DNA of 64,000 bases from Escherichia coli (GCF_016026235.1 NZ_CP065613.1); one strand, 5' to 3'. Counted from the stretch's first letter, positions 2 to 9,741 are shown. Notes: generated by a model from the sequence alone, not told the origin. Made by a program: numbers and translations.

Positions 2-916
2 ATGAATCAAACTGTCGCGGTGACGGGCGCTACCGGTTTTATCGGTAAATATATTATCGATAACCTGCTCGCCCGCGGCTTTCACGTTCGCGCATTGACG
101 CGTACTGCCCGCGCTCACGTCAATGACAATCTCACCTGGGTGCGCGGTTCGCTGGAAGATACTCATTCACTTAGCGAACTGGTTGCCGGAGCCAGTGCGG
201 TGGTCCATTGCGCTGGGCAAGTGCGCGGACACAAAGAAGAGATTTTTACCCACTGTAACGTTGACGGCAGCCTGCACCTGATGCAAGCGGCAAAAGAGAG
301 CGGCTTTTGCCAACGTTTTCTGTTTATCTCTTCGCTGGCGGCGCGCCATCCCGAGCTCTCCTGGTACGCAAATTCCAAACACGTCGCCGAACAACGGCTG
401 ACTGCAATGGCTGACGAAATTACGCTGGGCGTTTTTCGCCCGACAGCCGTGTATGGTCCCGGCGATAAAGAGTTAAAACCGCTGTTTGACTGGATGCTGC
501 GCGGCCTGCTGCCACGACTTGGTGCACCAGATACACAGCTCTCTTTCCTGCACGTCACCGATTTTGCGCAAGCAGTGGGTCAGTGGTTAAGCGCCGAAAC
601 TGTACAGACGCAAACCTATGAATTATGCGATGGCGTCGCTGGCGGCTATGACTGGCAACGCATACAGCAACTTGCCGCCAACGTCCGTTGCGGTTCCGTG
701 CGAATGGTTGGTATTCCTCTGCCGGTACTCACCTGCCTTGCGGATATCAGTACCGCGTTGAGTCGCCTGGCAGGTAAAGAACCTATGCTGACCCGCTCGA
801 AAATTCGTGAATTAACCCACGCCGACTGGTCGGCAAGTAATAACCGTATTTCTGAAGATATTAATTGGTTTCCCGGGATTAGCCTGGAACACGCATTACG
901 CAACGGGCTATTTTGA
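2..916 (+). CDS. NAD(P)-dependent epimerase/dehydratase-family (extended SDR) reductase
   Basis: 304-aa ORF; N-terminal Rossmann motif VTGATGFIGK; YANSK (YxxxK) catalytic motif; start codon at 2-4. Confidence 0.8.
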   Translation: MNQTVAVTGATGFIGKYIIDNLLARGFHVRALTRTARAHVNDNLTWVRGSLEDTHSLSELVAGASAVVHCAGQVRGHKEEIFTHCNVDGSLHLMQAAKESGFCQRFLFISSLAARHPELSWYANSKHVAEQRLTAMADEITLGVFRPTAVYGPGDKELKPLFDWMLRGLLPRLGAPDTQLSFLHVTDFAQAVGQWLSAETVQTQTYELCDGVAGGYDWQRIQQLAANVRCGSVRMVGIPLPVLTCLADISTALSRLAGKEPMLTRSKIRELTHADWSASNNRISEDINWFPGISLEHALRNGLF

Positions 917-947
917 TTGTCTTGTTTAAAGGTGTGTTAACGTTTCT

Positions 948-1196
948 ATGGTAAATCGTGAAATAGTAATGGATTACATCCTTTCCTGTTTACAGGATTT
1001 GGTCGAAAACGGTGTGGAAATTAAGCCCGACAGCGATCTCGTCAACGATCTTGGCCTGGAGTCGATCAAAGTGATGGATCTCTTAATGATGCTGGAAGAC
1101 AGATTCGATATTTCCATTCCTATTAATATTCTGCTGGATGTCAAAACCCCTGCGCAATTAATGGAAACTCTACTTCCATGGCTGGAGAATAAATAA
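948..1196 (+). CDS. acyl carrier protein-like small acidic protein
   Basis: 82-aa ORF; DLGLESI motif resembling the ACP phosphopantetheine attachment site (DSL); stop overlaps start of next gene. Confidence 0.65.
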   Translation: MVNREIVMDYILSCLQDLVENGVEIKPDSDLVNDLGLESIKVMDLLMMLEDRFDISIPINILLDVKTPAQLMETLLPWLENK

Positions 1197-2368
1197 TGGG
1201 GCTATACGATAAATATGCGCGCCTTGCTGGCGAGCGACTGCAATTTAGTGACAACGGGTTAACACCGTTTGGCACCTGTATTGATGAAGTGTATTCCGCC
1301 ACCGAAGGCCGGATCGGCAATAAAAAAGTGATTCTGGCCGGGACCAATAATTATCTCGGTTTAACCTTTAATCATGATGCCATCAGCGAAGGTCAGGCAG
1401 CGTTAGCGGCCCAAGGCACCGGCACCACCGGTTCTCGTATGGCAAACGGCAGTTATGCGCCGCACCTGGCGTTAGAGAAAGAGATTGCCGAGTTTTTCAA
1501 TCGCCCTACCGCTATCGTTTTTTCAACCGGTTATACCGCTAATTTAGGCGTCATCAGCGCACTTGCCGACCATAACGCCGTGGTGTTACTGGATGCCGAC
1601 AGCCACGCCAGTATTTATGACGCCTGTTCTCTCGGTGGCGCGGAAATTATTCGTTTCCGCCATAACGATGCTAAAGATCTGGAACGGCGCATGGTTCGCC
1701 TCGGTGAACGGGCGAAAGAGGCGATTATCATCGTTGAGGGCATCTACAGCATGCTCGGTGACGTTGCGCCGCTGGCGGAAATTGTTGATATCAAACGTCG
1801 TCTCGGTGGTTATTTGATTGTCGATGAAGCGCATTCGTTTGGCGTGTTAGGCGCAACAGGGCGCGGACTGGCTGAAGCTGTCGGCGTTGAAGATGATGTG
1901 GATATTATCGTTGGTACTTTCAGTAAAAGTCTGGCCTCGATTGGCGGTTTTGCTGTCGGTTCGGAAGCGATGGAAGTGCTGCGCTACGGCAGCCGCCCGT
2001 ATATTTTTACCGCCTCTCCTTCTCCGTCCTGCATTGCGACCGTGCGCTCGTCGTTAAGAACTATTGCCACACAACCAGAGCTGCGGCAAAAGCTGATGGA
2101 TAACGCCAACCATCTGTATGACGGTCTGCAAAAACTGGGTTATGAGTTAAGTTCACATATTAGCCCGGTAGTGCCAGTAATAATCGGTTCGAAAGAGGAA
2201 GGTTTACGCATCTGGCGCGAGCTTATCTCGCTGGGCGTGTATGTGAATCTTATCCTGCCGCCTGCCGCGCCTGCAGGCATCACGCTGCTGCGCTGTAGCG
2301 TAAATGCTGCCCACAGTCGTGAGCAAATCGATGCCATCATTCAGGCATTTGCTACTCTGAAGCAGTAA
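1196..2368 (+). CDS. PLP-dependent alpha-oxoamine synthase family acyltransferase (BioF/Kbl/serine-palmitoyltransferase-like)
   Basis: 390-aa ORF; conserved VDEAHSFG and GTFSKSL (PLP-binding Lys) motifs typical of class-II aminotransferase alpha-oxoamine synthases. Confidence 0.85.
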   Translation: MGLYDKYARLAGERLQFSDNGLTPFGTCIDEVYSATEGRIGNKKVILAGTNNYLGLTFNHDAISEGQAALAAQGTGTTGSRMANGSYAPHLALEKEIAEFFNRPTAIVFSTGYTANLGVISALADHNAVVLLDADSHASIYDACSLGGAEIIRFRHNDAKDLERRMVRLGERAKEAIIIVEGIYSMLGDVAPLAEIVDIKRRLGGYLIVDEAHSFGVLGATGRGLAEAVGVEDDVDIIVGTFSKSLASIGGFAVGSEAMEVLRYGSRPYIFTASPSPSCIATVRSSLRTIATQPELRQKLMDNANHLYDGLQKLGYELSSHISPVVPVIIGSKEEGLRIWRELISLGVYVNLILPPAAPAGITLLRCSVNAAHSREQIDAIIQAFATLKQ

Positions 2369-2373
2369 TGTGA

Positions 2374-2401
2374 GCCCGCCGTGGTGTTTGCGCCACGGCG
2401 G
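2374..2401. terminator. bidirectional stem-loop between convergent operons
   Basis: inverted repeat cccgccgtgg / ccacggcggg with 8-nt loop, followed by ttt. Confidence 0.5.
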
Positions 2402-2403
2402 GT

Positions 2404-3483
2404 TTAATGTTGTCTGTCATACCAATACACCAGGCTCAACGCCACCAACACAAACGCTACCGGTAAACCGAGCGCGGTAACAGGTGCGCTTAACGCAAAT
2501 AGCAATCCCAGATTAACCATGATTTGATAGCTGATCCAGGTGAGTAAGCCCACGATGACGCCTACAGCGAGACGGCTACCCATCCCAGGCGAACGCGGGG
2601 CAGTAAAGGTAAACGGCACAGCCAGCAAAATCATCGCCAGGGTCAGGATGGGTTGCCCCAGTTTTTCCCACAGTGCAAGGCGGTATTCGCTGCTGGGTTG
2701 CCCGGTTTCCTGCAAATAATGGATGTAATGATTAAGCTGACGGACAGAAAAAGTATTCCCCGGCATTGATAACTCTTCAAGATTCATACTGGTGAAGGCC
2801 GATTGCCAGGCAAGATTATCTAATGTTTCCAGCGTTTCTTTGCCATTCAGCCATTTTTTATGATTCACACCATGCAGGACCCACGTTTTGTCGTCTTTAA
2901 TGGTGGCACTGCGTGCATAAATGTAGGATTCAAGCGAGAGATCGTCGGGATAATGAAATATCTCCACGCCCACCGGCTGGCCCTGCTCGTTCAGCGATTT
3001 CACCGTCACAAATTCATTACCACGCCTGGCCCACAGCATATTGCCGGTAATGTCATCGTCCTCCCCCAACGCGGTGGCGGTCGATTTGATTTGCAGCGCC
3101 TGTTGCTGCAATGGCGACGCCACCCACTCATCTATCGCGCCTAACGAAACAGTCCACAATATCCCGGCAACCAGCGCCACCAGTGCAATACGGAAGATAG
3201 AAAACCCCGTGCTGCGAATGGCGGTAAGCTCACTGTTTTTCGATAACTGCCCCAGGCCAACAATCCCTCCCAATAAGGCGATAAACGGCGAAAGTTCGAC
3301 CAGTGTGCGCGGTAAGGTCATTAGCACCACCAGCACCGCCTGAGTCCAGCGATAACCGCCCGGGCTGACATCATCCAGTTCGTTAATCAGGTTGAAGGTG
3401 GTAAAAAGCGGCAGCAATAGCCCTGCGGCGGCGGCAAAACCGAGAAAGAGATGACGGATTAAATAGCGACTGAAAACATTCAT
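2404..3483 (-). CDS. LptG-like (YjgP/YjgQ family) permease paralog
   Basis: ORF 2404-3564; likely start at internal Met (MNVFSRYLIRHLF) giving a 4-bp overlap with the upstream gene; multi-TM protein with C-terminal similarity to LptG. Confidence 0.7.
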   Translation of the reverse strand: MNVFSRYLIRHLFLGFAAAAGLLLPLFTTFNLINELDDVSPGGYRWTQAVLVVLMTLPRTLVELSPFIALLGGIVGLGQLSKNSELTAIRSTGFSIFRIALVALVAGILWTVSLGAIDEWVASPLQQQALQIKSTATALGEDDDITGNMLWARRGNEFVTVKSLNEQGQPVGVEIFHYPDDLSLESYIYARSATIKDDKTWVLHGVNHKKWLNGKETLETLDNLAWQSAFTSMNLEELSMPGNTFSVRQLNHYIHYLQETGQPSSEYRLALWEKLGQPILTLAMILLAVPFTFTAPRSPGMGSRLAVGVIVGLLTWISYQIMVNLGLLFALSAPVTALGLPVAFVLVALSLVYWYDRQH

Positions 3484-4550
3484 CGGGAAAATTTCTGCAG
3501 CAAAGAGAAGTCGCGTGCGACCAGCATCAGCAGGCCCATTAGCATGAGTCCGGGTACTAACCACAAACCAGGAATGAGGGGAATCGCGCCGTTAGCCACC
3601 AGCGTACGGCAGACGTCGCCGCCATAAAAAATGGCAATAAACAGCAACGTCAGTGGCAATAATGTTGAAAATCGCCCTTGCCGCGGTTTTACCCGACTTA
3701 ATGAAATGGCCAGCAGCGCCATCAACAATGCTGTCAGGCCACGGCTTTGCCGCCATTGCAGTTCGGCATGATCGGCAGGAAATACAGAGCGTGCCAGCTC
3801 CGTGACCGATTTTGCTTTGCGTTTGACGTTAGGGCTTTGATCCAGCGGATTCAGATGTAATTGCAGATTACGGTAGATCTGTTCATTGTCGTCACGCCCC
3901 TGATGATCGAGAAGATAGGCAGTGCCGTTGTGCAACATAACGGTCGGTTTCTCGGGTGATGGGTCAACCACATCAACCGAACGGGCGCGGAAAATGCGGG
4001 TTCGATTGGCAGTAGAAGTATAAATCAGCGCGTCAGTCAGGCGATTATTATCCTGATCAACCGTCTGCGAAAGGATCATTCGTCCGTTATCGTTAGTGTT
4101 AAATTTCTTTGCCCGCAACTGGCGAACATCCAGCTCCGACTGCGACTGCTGCTCCAGTTGATAAATCTGCGCATAAGCCCACGGACGACCATACATCGAC
4201 AGAAGGGTGACAAAAATACTTAGCGGTATCGCCAGATAAAGAACGGCTTTGTACAAGCGTCCCGGACTGCCCCCCGCCGCAGAGATAGCGGTAATTTCCG
4301 AGTCGGTATACATCTGCCCTAGCGTCACGCCAACTGACACATACAGACCAACAGGTAACAACATCTCCAGTGCAATCAGCACTTTGTAGAAAACGATATC
4401 CAGCACAACATCAAGAGCTAATGTCCCATTTGCCGCTTCGGTCAGATAACGCTGTGCGGAGTAGCTGGCGAAAATAAAGATCAGAAAACCGACGATAATC
4501 AGCACCAGACGGCGCGTACCACGCATGATGTAGTGTTCAACCAGCTTCAT
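3480..4550 (-). CDS. LptF-like (YjgP/YjgQ family) permease paralog
   Basis: 356-aa ORF; motif LGQMYTDSEITAISAAG resembling the conserved LptF/LptG segment; multi-TM. Confidence 0.7.
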   Translation of the reverse strand: MKLVEHYIMRGTRRLVLIIVGFLIFIFASYSAQRYLTEAANGTLALDVVLDIVFYKVLIALEMLLPVGLYVSVGVTLGQMYTDSEITAISAAGGSPGRLYKAVLYLAIPLSIFVTLLSMYGRPWAYAQIYQLEQQSQSELDVRQLRAKKFNTNDNGRMILSQTVDQDNNRLTDALIYTSTANRTRIFRARSVDVVDPSPEKPTVMLHNGTAYLLDHQGRDDNEQIYRNLQLHLNPLDQSPNVKRKAKSVTELARSVFPADHAELQWRQSRGLTALLMALLAISLSRVKPRQGRFSTLLPLTLLFIAIFYGGDVCRTLVANGAIPLIPGLWLVPGLMLMGLLMLVARDFSLLQKFSR

Positions 4551-4580
4551 CTCACTAACGCCCTCAATCCTTTGAATTTT

Positions 4581-5144
4581 TTATTCATTGATCAGTTTCT
4601 GCGCCAGCGCAATGACATGATCTACCTCTTCCGGCGTCAGGCTGCCGTCCTTTGCCCACTGAATTTGCCCGGTTTTATTCAGCACCAGAATGGTTGAACT
4701 CTGCTCCGGCAAGCGCCAGGCAACGCGTCCCTGTCCATTGCCGTCAATAACGAATTGCGCCCACGGATAGCGGCGTTTATTTTTTTCGATTTTGCCAACG
4801 ACAAAATAGCCAGTACCAAAGATGGCATCATCAGTGTTCACAATGGTGGTGGGCTGAAAACGATCCTGTGGAAAGTTTGCCGCTTCAACCGCTTTAATTA
4901 ACAGTGAGTTCTTCTTCTTCGCTGACTTACGCCCGGCGATATACTGGATAATGCGGACTTTTCCCGCCAATTGTGTGCTGTTCCACTTTTGGTAGTGAAT
5001 TTCGTCGTCGCTATTCAGAAGCAGCTCGCCGCCTTCCTGAATATAAACAGGGGTAACCGTTTTGCCAGTGACGAAATTGTGTGCCTGCACACCCGGGGCT
5101 AAGAGCATGATAATCAGCGCAATAATCAAACGAGATGACATCAT
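4581..5144 (-). CDS. secreted/periplasmic protein of unknown function
   Basis: 187-aa ORF with an N-terminal signal-peptide-like segment (LIIALIIMLLAPGVQA). Confidence 0.5.
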   Translation of the reverse strand: MMSSRLIIALIIMLLAPGVQAHNFVTGKTVTPVYIQEGGELLLNSDDEIHYQKWNSTQLAGKVRIIQYIAGRKSAKKKNSLLIKAVEAANFPQDRFQPTTIVNTDDAIFGTGYFVVGKIEKNKRRYPWAQFVIDGNGQGRVAWRLPEQSSTILVLNKTGQIQWAKDGSLTPEEVDHVIALAQKLINE

Positions 5145-5152
5145 TGCTCCGG

Positions 5153-5977
5153 TTATAGCGGAAAACGCGAAATCAGCAGCTCTAAGCGCTGGCGAATATC
5201 GCTATCCAGCGCCACCGGTGCATCATACGACTGGCGGTTTTCCATATCATCCGCCACCATGTCGTCGTGTTTATCCCCCATCAGGCCATTAATGGCGGCG
5301 AGGAAACGGGAAATCTGTAACGCCTCTTTATTTTCAGGATCAAGCGATCTTAAGGTGTCGTAATAAGAAACCTGCTGGCTGATGATTTTTCGCACATCAT
5401 GAAATTCCCTGCCGGTTAGTCGCGGTTTGGCAATTATCTCTTTCAGGGCATGCATTTGCTTTTGCCGATAGGCAATAAAACCGCTTACGCTTTCTAACTG
5501 GCTATGGCGTAATGAATAGTTCACCAACGACCAGACCGGAGAGCTTAAATAAATTCGTAACAGGTTGCCGTAATACGACACAATATTTTTCTTACCGTTA
5601 CGAAATCCGTCCTGAAAACGTCCCAGAAAAACGGTCGTTTTGCCGAATAAAAATCTGGCCTGATGCTTTTTTAAATACAGCCGTTGTGCAAAACGTAGAT
5701 GCTTGTAGCGCGCTCGCATGTATTTAAACTGTTTACGCTCGTCTGTCGTCAGCTCATCGCCTTTGGCTTGTTTGCGAATTAAACGAAGTAATTCCTGACG
5801 ATCAACGCCATTGAGCCAGAATTGCAGGCATAACGCGTAATTATCATGGATGATTTCGGTGGTACAACATAGTGCGATAGTCGGCGGCAAACTGACCTGG
5901 GCATCAACAACATCATCTTCCTCAATCGCAACAAATAGATGCTCGCTCGCCTCAAGCGGGAAATATTTTCTCATCAT
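5153..5977 (-). CDS. hypothetical protein (possible counterpart of the K-12 yghO pseudogene)
   Basis: 274-aa ORF, in operon orientation with flanking genes; no motif recognised. Confidence 0.45.
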   Translation of the reverse strand: MMRKYFPLEASEHLFVAIEEDDVVDAQVSLPPTIALCCTTEIIHDNYALCLQFWLNGVDRQELLRLIRKQAKGDELTTDERKQFKYMRARYKHLRFAQRLYLKKHQARFLFGKTTVFLGRFQDGFRNGKKNIVSYYGNLLRIYLSSPVWSLVNYSLRHSQLESVSGFIAYRQKQMHALKEIIAKPRLTGREFHDVRKIISQQVSYYDTLRSLDPENKEALQISRFLAAINGLMGDKHDDMVADDMENRQSYDAPVALDSDIRQRLELLISRFPL

Positions 5978-7326
5978 CAGGATTTCTCTCCGGCTGCGTT
6001 ATAAAGCAAGGAATGGCGCTGAAAAAAAGCCTTTAAGATCGGAATTAGCGAAAGCACCACATCCAGACATTGACCGCCGAAATAAGCAAACGCTGCTCCC
6101 AGCACGCCAAACAGATGACAGAACATGAACAGCAATACGATGTAGCCGATTGAGGCGATGGTTTGCGCCACGAGAAAAGCGCGCTGTTTTCCCGCCATCA
6201 ATAGCAATGACTCCTGAGGGAAGCCCAGCATCGAGATCACAATTGCGCCCAGCATCACCTGAATCAGGTCATACGCTTCGAGATACTTAACGCCAAACAC
6301 CAGCGAAATGAGCGGCTTGCCGACGATCAACACCGCGAGCGCCACCAGAATACCGATTCCGCCCGCCAGTAAACCGGACTTCACACCTAACAACCACGGT
6401 CTGGTGGTGCGCGGATCTAAACGCATCACCTCTGGGTAAAAACTTTTACCCAGCAAACCCGCTGGCGTTCCGGCGGCGTCGAAGAATGTCATGGCGATTT
6501 TAAATAACCCGGCGACAGCGGGTCCTAACACGATCCCCACCAACACTGTGCTGCACGAGTTACGCGCCGACCAGATGGAGTGGGCAATGTTGGTTGACCA
6601 GACAAAACTCCACGCGCCTTTAATGTGTCGGGCAGACTCAAACAGATTCAATTTGAAGGCGTTATGGATATTTCTGCGGCGTAATTCGCGCGCGGCAAAC
6701 CACCAGTACATGGTGCCGCCAACCAGATTCGACACGTACCAGGCAATAACAAAACCCGCAAAACCAAAGTCAAAATACCAGGCTGCGACGCTCCCCGCTG
6801 CGCGCAGAAAAGGTTTCGTCGCCTGCTGTACAGCAATCAAATCAAAGCGATCTACCGCACGCAGAATGCCGGTCGGCGTGGAGGAAGCCATTGAAGGAAT
6901 GAGCGTGCAATACAGCGCTGCCAGCCAAAAGCTTTGGTCATCCAGACCTAATGAATGGGAAAGAAAAGGGAGTAAGGCAATGCCGCCGACAATCGCCACC
7001 GCGCCGCTGACGATATCCAGCGAGAAGGAAAATGAGACGACATTGCGAAATTGCTGCGGATTATTGTTGGTTAATGCTGGTGTTCCGTACTGAACCACCA
7101 GCTGCCATGTCTGAAACTTAATAAAATCGCTGATCGACTTGGCGTACGATTGCACAATCACCAGTACGCCAAACATGGCGGGCGTCATCCCTTTACCGGC
7201 ACACGAGAGCGCCAACAGACCCAGCAAGGCGCTCACGACATTACTGGAGCCTAACCAGGCGCTATTGCGAATAATGGTGCGAAACGCGCCATCTGCAAAC
7301 CAATGTTTGATGTTAAAACCCGCCAA
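5977..7326 (-). CDS. yghQ: polytopic inner-membrane protein, flippase-like (polysaccharide-biosynthesis/MOP type)
   Basis: 449-aa highly hydrophobic ORF; position immediately before yghR as in K-12. Confidence 0.6.
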   Translation of the reverse strand: MAGFNIKHWFADGAFRTIIRNSAWLGSSNVVSALLGLLALSCAGKGMTPAMFGVLVIVQSYAKSISDFIKFQTWQLVVQYGTPALTNNNPQQFRNVVSFSFSLDIVSGAVAIVGGIALLPFLSHSLGLDDQSFWLAALYCTLIPSMASSTPTGILRAVDRFDLIAVQQATKPFLRAAGSVAAWYFDFGFAGFVIAWYVSNLVGGTMYWWFAARELRRRNIHNAFKLNLFESARHIKGAWSFVWSTNIAHSIWSARNSCSTVLVGIVLGPAVAGLFKIAMTFFDAAGTPAGLLGKSFYPEVMRLDPRTTRPWLLGVKSGLLAGGIGILVALAVLIVGKPLISLVFGVKYLEAYDLIQVMLGAIVISMLGFPQESLLLMAGKQRAFLVAQTIASIGYIVLLFMFCHLFGVLGAAFAYFGGQCLDVVLSLIPILKAFFQRHSLLYNAAGEKS

Positions 7327-7371: not shown

Positions 7372-8130
7372 TTAAGTTAAACTTCGGCGGTCAGAAACGA
7401 TGGCAACCAGAGAAACCGCCTTCTGTGCCTGTTCCAGCACTTCGCTGTAGGGCGCTCTGGAATCAATCTCAAGAATTTTTGTGCCGTTATAGCCAATCGT
7501 CGACATAACACTGATTTTGTCCTGCAGCTCGGCATAGTCATGGTCAGGCTTGCGGGAGATGGCAGTCTCAATATCAATGCCCAGGCGAATAATTAATTCC
7601 GGGCGATATTGCGCCATTTGTTGGTATAAACGCCGTTCGCGCTGCGCCAGAAACATGCTGATTTTCCCGGTCGCACGTTCGACGCCAATCCCCGGTCCGT
7701 CATAATAAAAGCCCGAAATTTCAGCCTGCGGGAAGCGATCGCTGACCACCAGAACGCCACTTTGCGCCAGTCGCTGAACCTTGCGTAGATTCGCCATTCT
7801 TCGCAGCGAGAAGCAGTACATAATCACCGCCGCCCATAGCGCCGGAGATTTGGTTTTCATGCTTTGGGTTTTCGAGGATTTGGCCGCCAGTCGCCGTTCC
7901 AGCCAGACGCCAACCAACGGCAATCGTTTGATTTTGTCGCCGTCTTCGCCGGAGAGCAGCCCCAAATAGCGGCGCTCGGTTTGCCAGTGTTGTTGCAGCG
8001 ATTTCACCAGGTCGGTGGTCAGTGTGGATTTACCGGTGCCATCACACCCGACCACCGCAATCAGCCCCGGAATGTAGTTGGGCTGCGGCGCGGTTGTACT
8101 AATAACAGTTTGTGTTTGTAGTGCATCCAT
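7372..8130 (-). CDS. yghR: P-loop ATP-binding protein
   Basis: 252-aa ORF; Walker A VVGCDGTGKST; paralog of the next two genes. Confidence 0.7.
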   Translation of the reverse strand: MDALQTQTVISTTAPQPNYIPGLIAVVGCDGTGKSTLTTDLVKSLQQHWQTERRYLGLLSGEDGDKIKRLPLVGVWLERRLAAKSSKTQSMKTKSPALWAAVIMYCFSLRRMANLRKVQRLAQSGVLVVSDRFPQAEISGFYYDGPGIGVERATGKISMFLAQRERRLYQQMAQYRPELIIRLGIDIETAISRKPDHDYAELQDKISVMSTIGYNGTKILEIDSRAPYSEVLEQAQKAVSLVAIVSDRRSLT

Positions 8131-8161: not shown

Positions 8162-8875
8162 TCAAGAAAGCGCGGCGTGAATTGCGCGTAGTGACGCTTG
8201 CAGAATTTCATCGGCTGGTTGCCGACCATCCAGTTCAAGGATCTTTGCGCCATTGAATGTCAATTGCGGCGTAACGGCGATTTTTTCCTGTAACGCTGCC
8301 AGTTGGTGGTCAGGTTTACGCGCAAACGCGGTTTGTTCATCAATGCCAAGACGAATCAACAATACGGGTAAATAAGACGCCATCCATTGGTACAGCTTCA
8401 ACTCGCGCTGCCTTAACATTTTTATCCAACCGTTACCGCCCGTGGTTTTTGCCAATTGCGGGCCATCAAAGCGAAAACCCGGCACTTCAACCTGCGGGTA
8501 GCGGTCGGTGATGAGCAGATGGCCTTGCTGGCTTCTACACAACATTTTGCGAAACTTGTACGCCCGCCAGCAGGAAAGCAGATAGATAACCAGCGCAGTA
8601 ATATTGCCAGGCGGTGTTGAGGGCTTTTCGTGCACATGTGCCGCTTTACTTCGCAGATAACGCCCAAAAGGTGCGCCAATAACAGGGAGCTGTGAAATCC
8701 ATTCGCCAATTCGCCCGGACGATTGCCCGAGATAAATGCGTTCTGTTGGCATTCTTGCTGCCAGTTCATTTACCAGGCTTGCCGTGAGGGTCGATTTACC
8801 TGAACCATCACATCCTACAATGGCAATAACACGCACTGGCGTGGAATTAATTATTGACATATTACGTTGATTCAC
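8162..8875 (-). CDS. yghS: P-loop ATP-binding protein
   Basis: 237-aa ORF; Walker A IVGCDGSGKST; shared DRYPQ and RKPDH motifs with yghR/yghT. Confidence 0.7.
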   Translation of the reverse strand: MNQRNMSIINSTPVRVIAIVGCDGSGKSTLTASLVNELAARMPTERIYLGQSSGRIGEWISQLPVIGAPFGRYLRSKAAHVHEKPSTPPGNITALVIYLLSCWRAYKFRKMLCRSQQGHLLITDRYPQVEVPGFRFDGPQLAKTTGGNGWIKMLRQRELKLYQWMASYLPVLLIRLGIDEQTAFARKPDHQLAALQEKIAVTPQLTFNGAKILELDGRQPADEILQASLRAIHAALS

Positions 8876-9048: not shown

Positions 9049-9741
9049 ATGCAGTCAATAACACCTCCATTAATTGCCGTTATTGGTAGCGATGGTTCAG
9101 GCAAGTCAACGGTGTGTGAACATCTCATTACCGTTGTCGAAAAATATGGTGCTGCCGAAAGAGTTCATTTAGGAAAACAAGCCGGAAATGTCGGTCGTGC
9201 AGTGACAAAATTACCGTTGATGGGAAAATCCTTACATAAAACAATTGAACGAAATCAGGTGAAAACAGCAAAAAAATTGCCAGGACCAGTTCCGGCGCTG
9301 GTAATTACAGCGTTTGTCGCCCGTCGCTTACTGCGCTTTCGTCATATGCTTGCCTGTCGTCGTCGCGGGTTAATTGTTCTAACCGACCGTTATCCTCAGG
9401 ACCAAATTCCTGGCGCTTACGATGGTACGGTGTTCCCACCTAACGTTGAAGGTGGTCGTTTTGTCTCATGGCTGGCAAGCCAGGAACGTAAAGCGTTTCA
9501 CTGGATGGCGAGCCATAAGCCTGATCTGGTCATCAAACTCAATGTCGATCTAGACGTGGCCTGCGCGCGTAAGCCTGACCACAAAAGGGAATCGCTGGCA
9601 AGAAAGATAGCCATAACGCCACAGTTAACCTTTGGTGGTGCACAACTGGTTGATATCGACGCCAATCAGCCACTGGAACAGGTGTTAGTTGATGCAGAAA
9701 AAGCGATTACGGATTTTATGACCGCGCGTGGTTATCACTAG
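9049..9741 (+). CDS. yghT: P-loop ATP-binding protein
   Basis: 230-aa ORF; Walker [12 protein letters not shown]; divergent from yghS. Confidence 0.7.

Follow-up and report, generated by a model that had tools for sequence, protein, structure and literature searches.

Organization of the locus

The region described here lies at the left end of a 64,000-nt stretch of Escherichia coli DNA (NZ_CP065613.1; hereafter the window, to whose positions all coordinates refer) and consists of two convergent operons that form a candidate locus for the synthesis and export of a sphingolipid. Positions 2 to 7,326 had been marked as such a cluster in a reading made from the sequence alone. A listing of the open reading frames (ORFs) of the window recovered both operons with every ORF and motif quoted in that reading, intact and where it had placed them (Table 1). 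The limits of the cluster, however, had been drawn too narrowly. The plus-strand operon is truncated by the left edge of the window, as became apparent by comparison with the 100%-identical record NZ_CP065615. There, aasR, which encodes a fatty acyl-AMP ligase, extends 4 nt into the start of the reductase gene, and yghO, a homolog of bCerS, lies upstream of aasR in the divergent orientation. On the other side, the minus-strand operon does not begin at position 7326 but with yghS and yghR, ahead of yghQ. The genes yghR, yghS and yghT belong to the unit, which extends to position 9741, as do aasR and yghO beyond the left edge.

Several gene junctions in this region are very tight. The lptF2 and lptG2 genes overlap by 4 nt (ATGA), which indicates translational coupling, as had been predicted for this pair. 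The acpR and spt genes share a single nucleotide (TAATG), and the same is true of yghQ and the gene of the 274-aa protein (TGATG). The two operons meet at a 35-bp spacer with a G+C-rich hairpin that, judged from its sequence, would be terminator-like, although its T-run is weak. A promoter scan gave 9 matches against 11.2 expected from shuffled sequence, one of them in the spacer between yghS and yghT.

Table 1. Features of the sphingolipid locus in the window
Feature	Position	Strand	Basis
SDR (extended-SDR reductase)	2-916	+	ORF, motifs
AcpR, acyl carrier protein	948-1196	+	ORF, motif
Spt, pyridoxal phosphate-dependent alpha-oxoamine synthase, 390 aa	1196-2368	+	ORF, motifs
G+C-rich hairpin, terminator-like	2371-2406	none	16-pair stem, 10 G-C pairs, 4-nt loop
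LptG2 (LptG-like)	2404-3483	-	RefSeq start; mechanical ORF extends to 3564
LptF2 (LptF-like)	3480-4550	-	ORF
YtfJ-family signal-peptide-like protein	4581-5141	-	ORF, family match
CHAD-fold protein (predicted), 274 aa	5153-5977	-	ORF, predicted structure
YghQ, polytopic MOP/Wzx-type protein	5977-7326	-	ORF, Pfam
YghR, P-loop kinase-like, dTMP-kinase-like fold	7372-8130	-	ORF, paralogy
YghS, P-loop kinase-like; first gene of the minus-strand operon	8162-8875	-	ORF, paralogy
YghT, third P-loop kinase-like paralog, divergent from yghS	9049-9741	+	ORF, paralogy

Proteins of long-chain-base synthesis

Based on curated hidden Markov model (HMM) cutoffs and on a ranking of scores against solved structures in the PDB, rather than on a tree, Spt was placed among the serine palmitoyltransferases. 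It passed the NCBIfam serine palmitoyltransferase equivalog NF047599 with 599.9 bits (cutoff 500) and fell below the cutoffs for BioF (334 bits, cutoff 426), Kbl (297, cutoff 460), the CqsA type (221, cutoff 428) and ALAS (219, cutoff 339). Clustering with BioF or Kbl, which the sequence-only reading had named as the outcome that would speak against its proposal, was thus not observed. The two solved Sphingomonas serine palmitoyltransferases ranked first among the structures, with 376 bits (2jg2) and 373 bits (2x8u) over the full length, followed by the Sphingobacterium enzyme (265 bits), cysteate acyltransferase (207), Kbl (204), BioF (about 180), ALAS (172) and CqsA (124). In the alignment with 2jg2, residues H159, D231, H234, K265 and R390 correspond to H137, D210, H213, K244 and the Arg of LLRCS in the E. 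coli protein, all of them conserved. Spt shows the motifs VDEAHSFG (residue 209) and GTFSKSL (residue 240) and is 99.7% identical to SPT of E. coli BL21(DE3) (ECD_02854). Its gene directly follows a dedicated acpR within one operon.

AcpR carries DLGLESI at residue 34 and is 100% identical to ECD_02853 of BL21(DE3), with which it shares the RefSeq accession WP_000248097.1. Its scores lie under the cutoffs of the NCBIfam acyl carrier protein (ACP) models, which is consistent with a specialised ACP. The SDR, 96.4% identical to ECD_02852, has the motifs TGATGFIGK (GATGFIGK) and YANSK at residues 9 and 122, respectively, which fit TGxxGxxG and YxxxK, and all its NCBIfam matches, e.g. HpnA and OleD, were sub-threshold. 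Its gene sits between aasR and acpR, a placement kept in Serratia, Sodalis, Hafnia and the Xanthomonadales. ECD_02852 and yghO (ECD_02850) have been named as homologs of Caulobacter CerR/epi and bCerS/aca, respectively (PMC9386255). As a homolog of CerR/epi (CC_1164), the SDR is presumed to be the 3-keto reductase of the ceramide pathway.

The sequence-only reading named no characterised function for this locus. Yet Padilla-Gomez et al. studied the same locus in BL21(DE3) and characterised its AasR, AcpR and SPT in 2022 (PMC9386255). In their work ECD_02853 (AcpR) carried 4'-phosphopantetheine, as labelled with beta-alanine, and functioned with AasR-Ec. Co-expression of AasR-Ec (ECD_02851), AcpR-Ec and SPT-Ec (ECD_02854) led to 3-oxo-sphinganine, SPT-Ec favoured acyl-AcpR over acyl-CoA, and L-[14C]serine was built into a 3-oxo-sphinganine-like product by the E. 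coli enzyme (PMC9386255). Together with the Spt equivalog and the ranking of structures, this biochemistry bears out the proposal of sphingolipid long-chain-base synthesis; the sulfonolipid and acyl-homoserine alternatives that had accompanied it found no support.

A 99%-identical protein of 443 aa with joined ACP and Spt domains was found in a eukaryotic protein set (P0047, source eukprot). Contamination from E. coli, with the overlapping acpR and spt genes merged by a gene caller, is its most likely origin.

Export candidates and the YtfJ-family protein

Both permease-like proteins belong to the families of the lipopolysaccharide (LPS) exporter. LptG2 passed NCBIfam TIGR04408 (305.8 bits, cutoff 240) and shows six hydrophobic segments, and LptF2 passed TIGR04407 (318.4 bits, cutoff 230). 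Against solved chains of the housekeeping proteins, LptG2 scored 125-147 bits and LptF2 76-114 bits; these chains come from Vibrio, Pseudomonas, Enterobacteriaceae and Acinetobacter. The near-equal scores to the solved housekeeping chains fit old paralogs and, in the case of LptG2, not a recent copy of E. coli lptG. The gene annotation from yghO through yghT shows no ABC ATPase. The RefSeq name 'LPS export' given to LptF2 and LptG2 is probably a mis-assignment of substrate.

Work on Caulobacter supports, by analogy, the proposal that LptFG-like permeases and a flippase may serve export here. Olea-Ozuna et al. 2024 proposed that LptC2, LptF2 and LptG2, together with CC_1166, move Caulobacter sphingolipids to the outer membrane (PMC11324152). 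In a bioRxiv preprint of April 2026, Uchendu, Isom and Klein reported that deletion of Caulobacter lptF2, lptG2 and lptC2 succeeds only if spt or cpgB is absent, that LptF2/G2 are required when the anionic sphingolipid CPG2 is made, and that LptF2 co-purifies with LptG2 and both of them with the single LptB (10.64898/2026.04.12.717747). Their Fig. 2B draws the sphingolipid operons of E. coli UTI89, with lptF2/G2 coloured as homologs of CCNA_01213/CCNA_01214 (10.64898/2026.04.12.717747).

YghQ has multiple long hydrophobic segments and matches the Pfam Polysacc_synt family PF01943 (E=1.8e-8) and PF13440 (E=6.5e-7); its NCBIfam matches were weak and far under cutoff. It is a candidate sphingolipid flippase of the MOP/Wzx type. 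The protein encoded between lptF2 and the gene of the 274-aa protein, previously described as a signal-peptide protein, does have an N-terminal hydrophobic, signal-like segment (residues 1-21) and belongs to the YtfJ family (TIGR01626, 213 bits, cutoff 151).

The kinase-like proteins and the CHAD-fold protein

YghR, YghS and YghT are mutually paralogous, and 50 members of their family show no variation in the P-loop GxDGxGK or at further Arg, Lys and His positions. YghR gave only weak P-loop/Tmk matches, and a search of the PDB with its sequence returned nothing meaningful; YghS and YghT show a Tmk-like fold with an insertion of about 40 residues. None of the three reached the curated cutoff of 83 bits for dTMP kinase (TIGR00041), with 32 bits for YghR and 22-25 bits for YghS and YghT, of which YghT had 25. 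The RefSeq annotation of the last two as 'dTMP kinase' was rejected on these scores and is probably a misnomer. We also considered whether the three proteins might be homologs of CpgB, the ceramide kinase of Caulobacter, which has been described as DAGK-like (PMC10331486). This was rejected too, as CpgB is diacylglycerol kinase-like with a GGDG motif and the three proteins have a P-loop and a fold like that of Tmk. No protein of the cluster matched a family of DAGK/sphingosine-kinase catalytic domains.

The 274-aa protein had been listed as an unknown. A fold can now be proposed for it. It has no Pfam or NCBIfam match, and no Pfam CHAD (PF05235) match was found at E<=10, whereas distant members of its family gave weak CHAD matches (E=2.6e-4 and 2.7e-3). 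Its AlphaFold2 model (pLDDT 92, pTM 0.89) is all-helical, and a Foldseek search of the AlphaFold database retrieved relatives at 28-42% identity with TM scores above 0.9, most of them annotated as CHAD. The CHAD-annotated relatives come from Sphingomonas, Zymomonas, Gluconobacter, Acetobacter and Komagataeibacter, the first three of which have been named among the Spt-carrying Rhodobacteria (PMC9386255). The protein is accordingly predicted, on the basis of the model, to be soluble and of CHAD fold, an assignment that is new here. Mean column identity within the Enterobacterales is 69%, and R88, D123, H193, R196 and D238 are invariant in 75 diverse sequences of the family. The CHAD domains 6qv5 (Ricinus communis), 3e0s (Chlorobium) and 6rn5 (Streptomyces PptA) are described as polyphosphate binders. 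The 274-aa protein differs from them in that it shares only 8-18% identity, stands alone without a CYTH fusion and is encoded in a lipid locus; its conserved basic and His residues appear compatible with polyphosphate binding but are not specific for it.

An exhaustive profile search yielded 299 representatives of the CHAD-like family at 50% clustering. In one fusion protein Pfam detected an APH/choline-kinase-type phosphotransferase domain joined to two CHAD-like domains; two other fusions were uninformative in Pfam, and an NCBIfam search of the fusion proteins gave no match. One representative protein of 564 aa (P0242) matches the CHAD-like profile twice, along two stretches, as a tandem fusion would, and the gene is present as a tandem duplicate in two Luteibacter genomes (L054 10001-11757; L059 9152-10816). 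Extra, unlinked copies were seen in Pluralibacter and Sphingomonas formosensis (L028, L036, L075). The neighbourhoods of three distant metagenomic members held no sphingolipid genes, so the linkage of CHAD-like genes to such genes is not universal. Our literature search found no paper joining 'CHAD domain' and 'sphingolipid'.

Conservation of the gene set across genera

A scan of species-representative genomes gave 78 loci, and these were searched by tblastn with 13 E. coli proteins. The counts given below refer to loci with full 10-kb flanks (Table 2). ORF clustering was noisy in high-G+C loci, and only HMM-verified families were used.

Table 2. Loci with each gene group in three bacterial orders (kinase counts may include cross-hits between paralogs; by gene order, each Sphingomonadales locus has 1-3 distinct kinase-like genes)
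Order	Loci	spt/acpR/cerR/aasR	yghQ + kinase-like	lptG2	ytfJ-like
Enterobacterales	37	35	35	34	35
Xanthomonadales	5	5	5	0	0
Sphingomonadales	12	0	12	0	0

The gene set occurs as a unit in 35 of the 37 Enterobacterales loci, spread over 16 genera and at 50-88% identity; a lack of such conservation, which the sequence-only reading had named as a refuting outcome, was thus not observed. The two exceptions are extra unlinked CHAD-like paralogs of Pluralibacter. Linkage to spt holds for lptF2 in 32 and for lptG2 in 34 of these 37 loci. Loci of Serratia, Sodalis and Hafnia, anchored on homologs of the 274-aa protein, hold this same set, but the order and orientation of its modules vary. In the Xanthomonadales (Luteibacter, Rhodanobacter and Dyella) the genes aasR-cerR-acpR-spt-yghQ-CHAD-like form one co-directional run, in which yghQ begins 15 bp past spt on the same strand. 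In all 12 Sphingomonadales loci the kinase-like genes (2-3), yghQ and the CHAD-like gene follow the E. coli order, with 49-57% identity to E. coli for yghQ and 35-47% for the CHAD-like gene, and no spt lies within 10 kb of the module. The yghT gene is conserved beside yghS/yghR in the Enterobacterales and Xanthomonadales and is co-directional with them in the Sphingomonadales. Only in the Enterobacterales are lptF2/G2 and the ytfJ-like gene linked to the kinase-yghQ-CHAD module.

Some neighbouring genes differ between these groups. The Xanthomonadales run is preceded by kinase-like genes and by a gene for an acyl 2-hydroxylase of the OlsC/LpxO type, located between the kinase-like genes and aasR (L054 3449-4207, plus strand; likewise in L058, L059, L060 and L064). 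This protein scored 217 bits, under the OlsC cutoff of 450, and the E. coli cluster has no counterpart; its presence fits ceramides with 2-hydroxy acyl chains. A gene for a QseC/PmrB-like sensor histidine kinase divergently adjoins the module in 10 of 15 Sphingomonadales loci (e.g. L066 4912-6285, minus strand) and is a possible regulator of it. In Hafnia paralvei the yghO-like gene is adjoined by one for a 4'-phosphopantetheinyl transferase (Pfam ACPS, 4PPT_N; L004 19785-20513, minus strand). This transferase could be a dedicated activator of AcpR, for which the E. coli locus has no gene. Finally, a record titled Martelella alba BGMRC 2031 (L045) contains a cluster of the Enterobacterales type with 60-78% identity to E. 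coli, complete except for the yghO homolog, none being found within the flank. Its alphaproteobacterial label probably reflects a mislabelled or contaminated assembly.

Distribution in E. coli and loss from K-12

The locus occupies the chromosomal site between glcC/yghO and pitB. Some part of a 9.8-kb query was matched in 4766 of 5426 complete E. coli genomes, and 4080 of them (75%) hold at least 80% of this stretch at 95-99% DNA identity. All eleven ORFs of the window are intact, with 96-100% protein identity to BL21(DE3), where the gene order is the same and the proteins of the region are 96.4-100% identical. According to the literature, UTI89 and the enterotoxigenic strain B7A carry the cluster as well.

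The expectation that K-12 retains only a remnant was confirmed in TUM23335, a K-12-type strain in which IS5 sits between yghO and a yghQ annotated as incomplete. Only the sequence from window position 6258 onward is kept in this strain, and the IS5 (locus L006, 4875-5855) takes the exact place of the absent segment, which runs from aasR into the 5' part of yghQ (window left edge to about 6257). This suggests that the K-12 lineage lost the ceramide pathway by a deletion associated with IS5; the loss is not known to cause a defect in K-12 grown in the laboratory. An intact ceramide pathway is carried by about 75% of complete E. coli genomes, BL21(DE3) included, but not by K-12. It is therefore missing from lipid and envelope biology that relies on K-12, and its enzymes are present in the background of expression work with BL21.

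Proposed pathway and alternatives

With a probability of roughly 85%, we regard the region as the counterpart in E. coli of the rhodobacterial locus for the synthesis and export of ceramide (sphingolipid). In the proposed pathway AasR would load a fatty acid on holo-AcpR, and Spt would join acyl-AcpR and L-serine to give 3-oxo-sphinganine, as shown for the near-identical BL21 proteins. By homology to the Caulobacter proteins, YghO would N-acylate the base and the SDR would reduce the 3-keto group, giving dihydroceramide. Family membership, gene context and Caulobacter genetics suggest that YghQ may flip the lipid over the inner membrane, possibly after modification of the head group, and that LptF2-LptG2 with the housekeeping LptB may extract it to the outer membrane via the Lpt bridge. 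LptB is proposed as the power source because no ATPase is encoded at the locus itself. Our best guess for the kinases and the CHAD-fold protein is that they act on a phosphorylated head group or a precursor.

A number of points weigh against this assignment. In BL21 with empty vectors 3-oxo-sphinganine was undetectable (PMC9386255), so that the cluster may stay silent under laboratory conditions, and our literature search found no report of a native E. coli sphingolipid. The Caulobacter preprint is unreviewed and documents genetic dependence and interactions, not transport itself (10.64898/2026.04.12.717747). Compared with Caulobacter, E. coli is without LptC2, a CpgB-type kinase, a Tam41-like protein and a CDP-alcohol transferase, and its locus also lacks the Caulobacter phosphoesterase and nucleotidyltransferase genes. 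Without the head-group enzymes of Caulobacter, the final lipid cannot be equal to that of Caulobacter. The roles assigned in E. coli to the reductase, YghO, YghQ, LptF2/G2 and the accessory proteins are inferred ones. In Spt itself, Arg378 of the Sphingomonas enzyme aligns to a Leu (alignment to 2jg2). We take this Arg to be a residue that contacts the serine carboxylate, and the Leu at its position may bear on how Spt handles its substrate.

The synthesis genes might be functional and the minus-strand operon an unrelated envelope glycan or LPS system that merely adjoins them. The RefSeq names 'LPS export permease', 'lipopolysaccharide biosynthesis protein' and 'dTMP kinase' agree with such a system, and so do the absence of spt near the Sphingomonadales module and the Wzx/Polysacc_synt family of YghQ, whose known members flip undecaprenyl-linked sugars. 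We nevertheless find it unlikely. The linkage of the two gene groups outlasts repeated reordering of the modules over 16 enterobacterial genera, and in the Xanthomonadales yghQ directly follows spt. No glycosyltransferase, Wzy or Wzz is conserved beside the module in any clade, including the Sphingomonadales, in which four families recur. YghS and YghT fail the dTMP-kinase cutoffs, and Caulobacter genetics tie LptF2/G2 to sphingolipid production. On the assignment that we favour, to ceramide synthesis and export, the RefSeq names at the locus (LptF/LptG, 'lipopolysaccharide biosynthesis protein' and 'dTMP kinase') mislead on substrate.

It is quite improbable that the cluster is a cryptic, silent relic that makes no lipid under natural conditions and is kept by drift. 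The negative result in BL21 with empty vectors (PMC9386255), the IS5-associated loss in K-12 and the lack of any match for a native product in the literature are what a relic would lead one to expect. The eleven ORFs of the window are nevertheless intact and 96-100% identical at the protein level between two strains, three quarters of the complete genomes retain at least 80% of the stretch, and the cloned enzymes are active (PMC9386255). Moreover, the maintenance of the gene set at 50-88% identity across the Enterobacterales implies purifying selection. A non-sphingoid product of Spt, be it a cysteate-derived sulfonolipid base, a hydroxyketone of the CAI-1 type or an acylated form of an amino acid other than serine, can be practically dismissed: the alpha-oxoamine synthase family is mechanistically versatile and Spt shows weaker similarity to cysteate-C-fatty acyltransferase and CqsA, but it passed the serine palmitoyltransferase equivalog and failed the cutoffs of BioF, Kbl, CqsA and ALAS, its scores for the Sphingomonas structures exceed the others by more than 100 bits, and the E. 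coli enzyme incorporates L-[14C]serine (PMC9386255).

The locus is already known and partly characterised, with both halves of the proposal, synthesis and export, present in the literature, and what is new is the conservation of a kinase/YghQ/CHAD-like module in sphingolipid-associated Proteobacteria; our literature search found no description of a link between this module and sphingolipid loci. We propose only tentatively, with the odds somewhat against it, that the yghS-yghR-yghQ-CHAD-like operon and yghT constitute a conserved module for an unrecognised step in the maturation or flipping of sphingolipids. If this is true, the module would fill the 'no flippase identified' gap of the field, and E. 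coli would make a so far undetected, probably phosphorylated sphingolipid with a head group unlike that of Caulobacter CPG2. The genes of the module are concrete candidates for the flippase and head-group steps that are still missing, in an organism whose genetics are easy.

Comparison with known systems

Genes ECD_02850-02854 of BL21(DE3) (yghO/aca, aasR, epi, acpR and spt) represent the same locus in identical order, with strain-level substitutions only. The study of 2022 by Padilla-Gomez left aside the convergent operon (lptG2 to yghS) and yghT. The Caulobacter locus (CC_1152-CC_1168), on which Olea-Ozuna in 2021 and Stankeviciute in 2022 also worked, is alike in having five clustered ceramide genes (AasR, CerR, AcpR, Spt and bCerS), an LptF2/LptG2 pair without a dedicated LptB, and a putative flippase of the Polysacc_synt type, CC_1166. 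The likeness of LptF2/G2 and YghQ to CC_1155, CC_1156 and CC_1166 is drawn from family and published description. The three dTMP-kinase-like proteins, the predicted CHAD-fold protein and the YtfJ-family protein, on the other hand, are encoded in the E. coli locus and are unlisted in the Caulobacter cluster.

With respect to the housekeeping LptB2FG, LptF2 and LptG2 are of the same family and length, and the six-segment topology is clear for LptG2. They differ from it as a second, diverged copy located in a lipid-synthesis locus, with a presumed substrate of the ceramide type. The Sphingomonas serine palmitoyltransferases (2jg2 and 2x8u) share with E. coli Spt the pyridoxal phosphate-binding lysine, the catalytic His/Asp/His residues and the equivalent of Arg390. 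The two systems differ in gene arrangement. In E. coli spt is clustered with the export genes and with aasR, the latter of which is located elsewhere in the genome in the Sphingomonadaceae.

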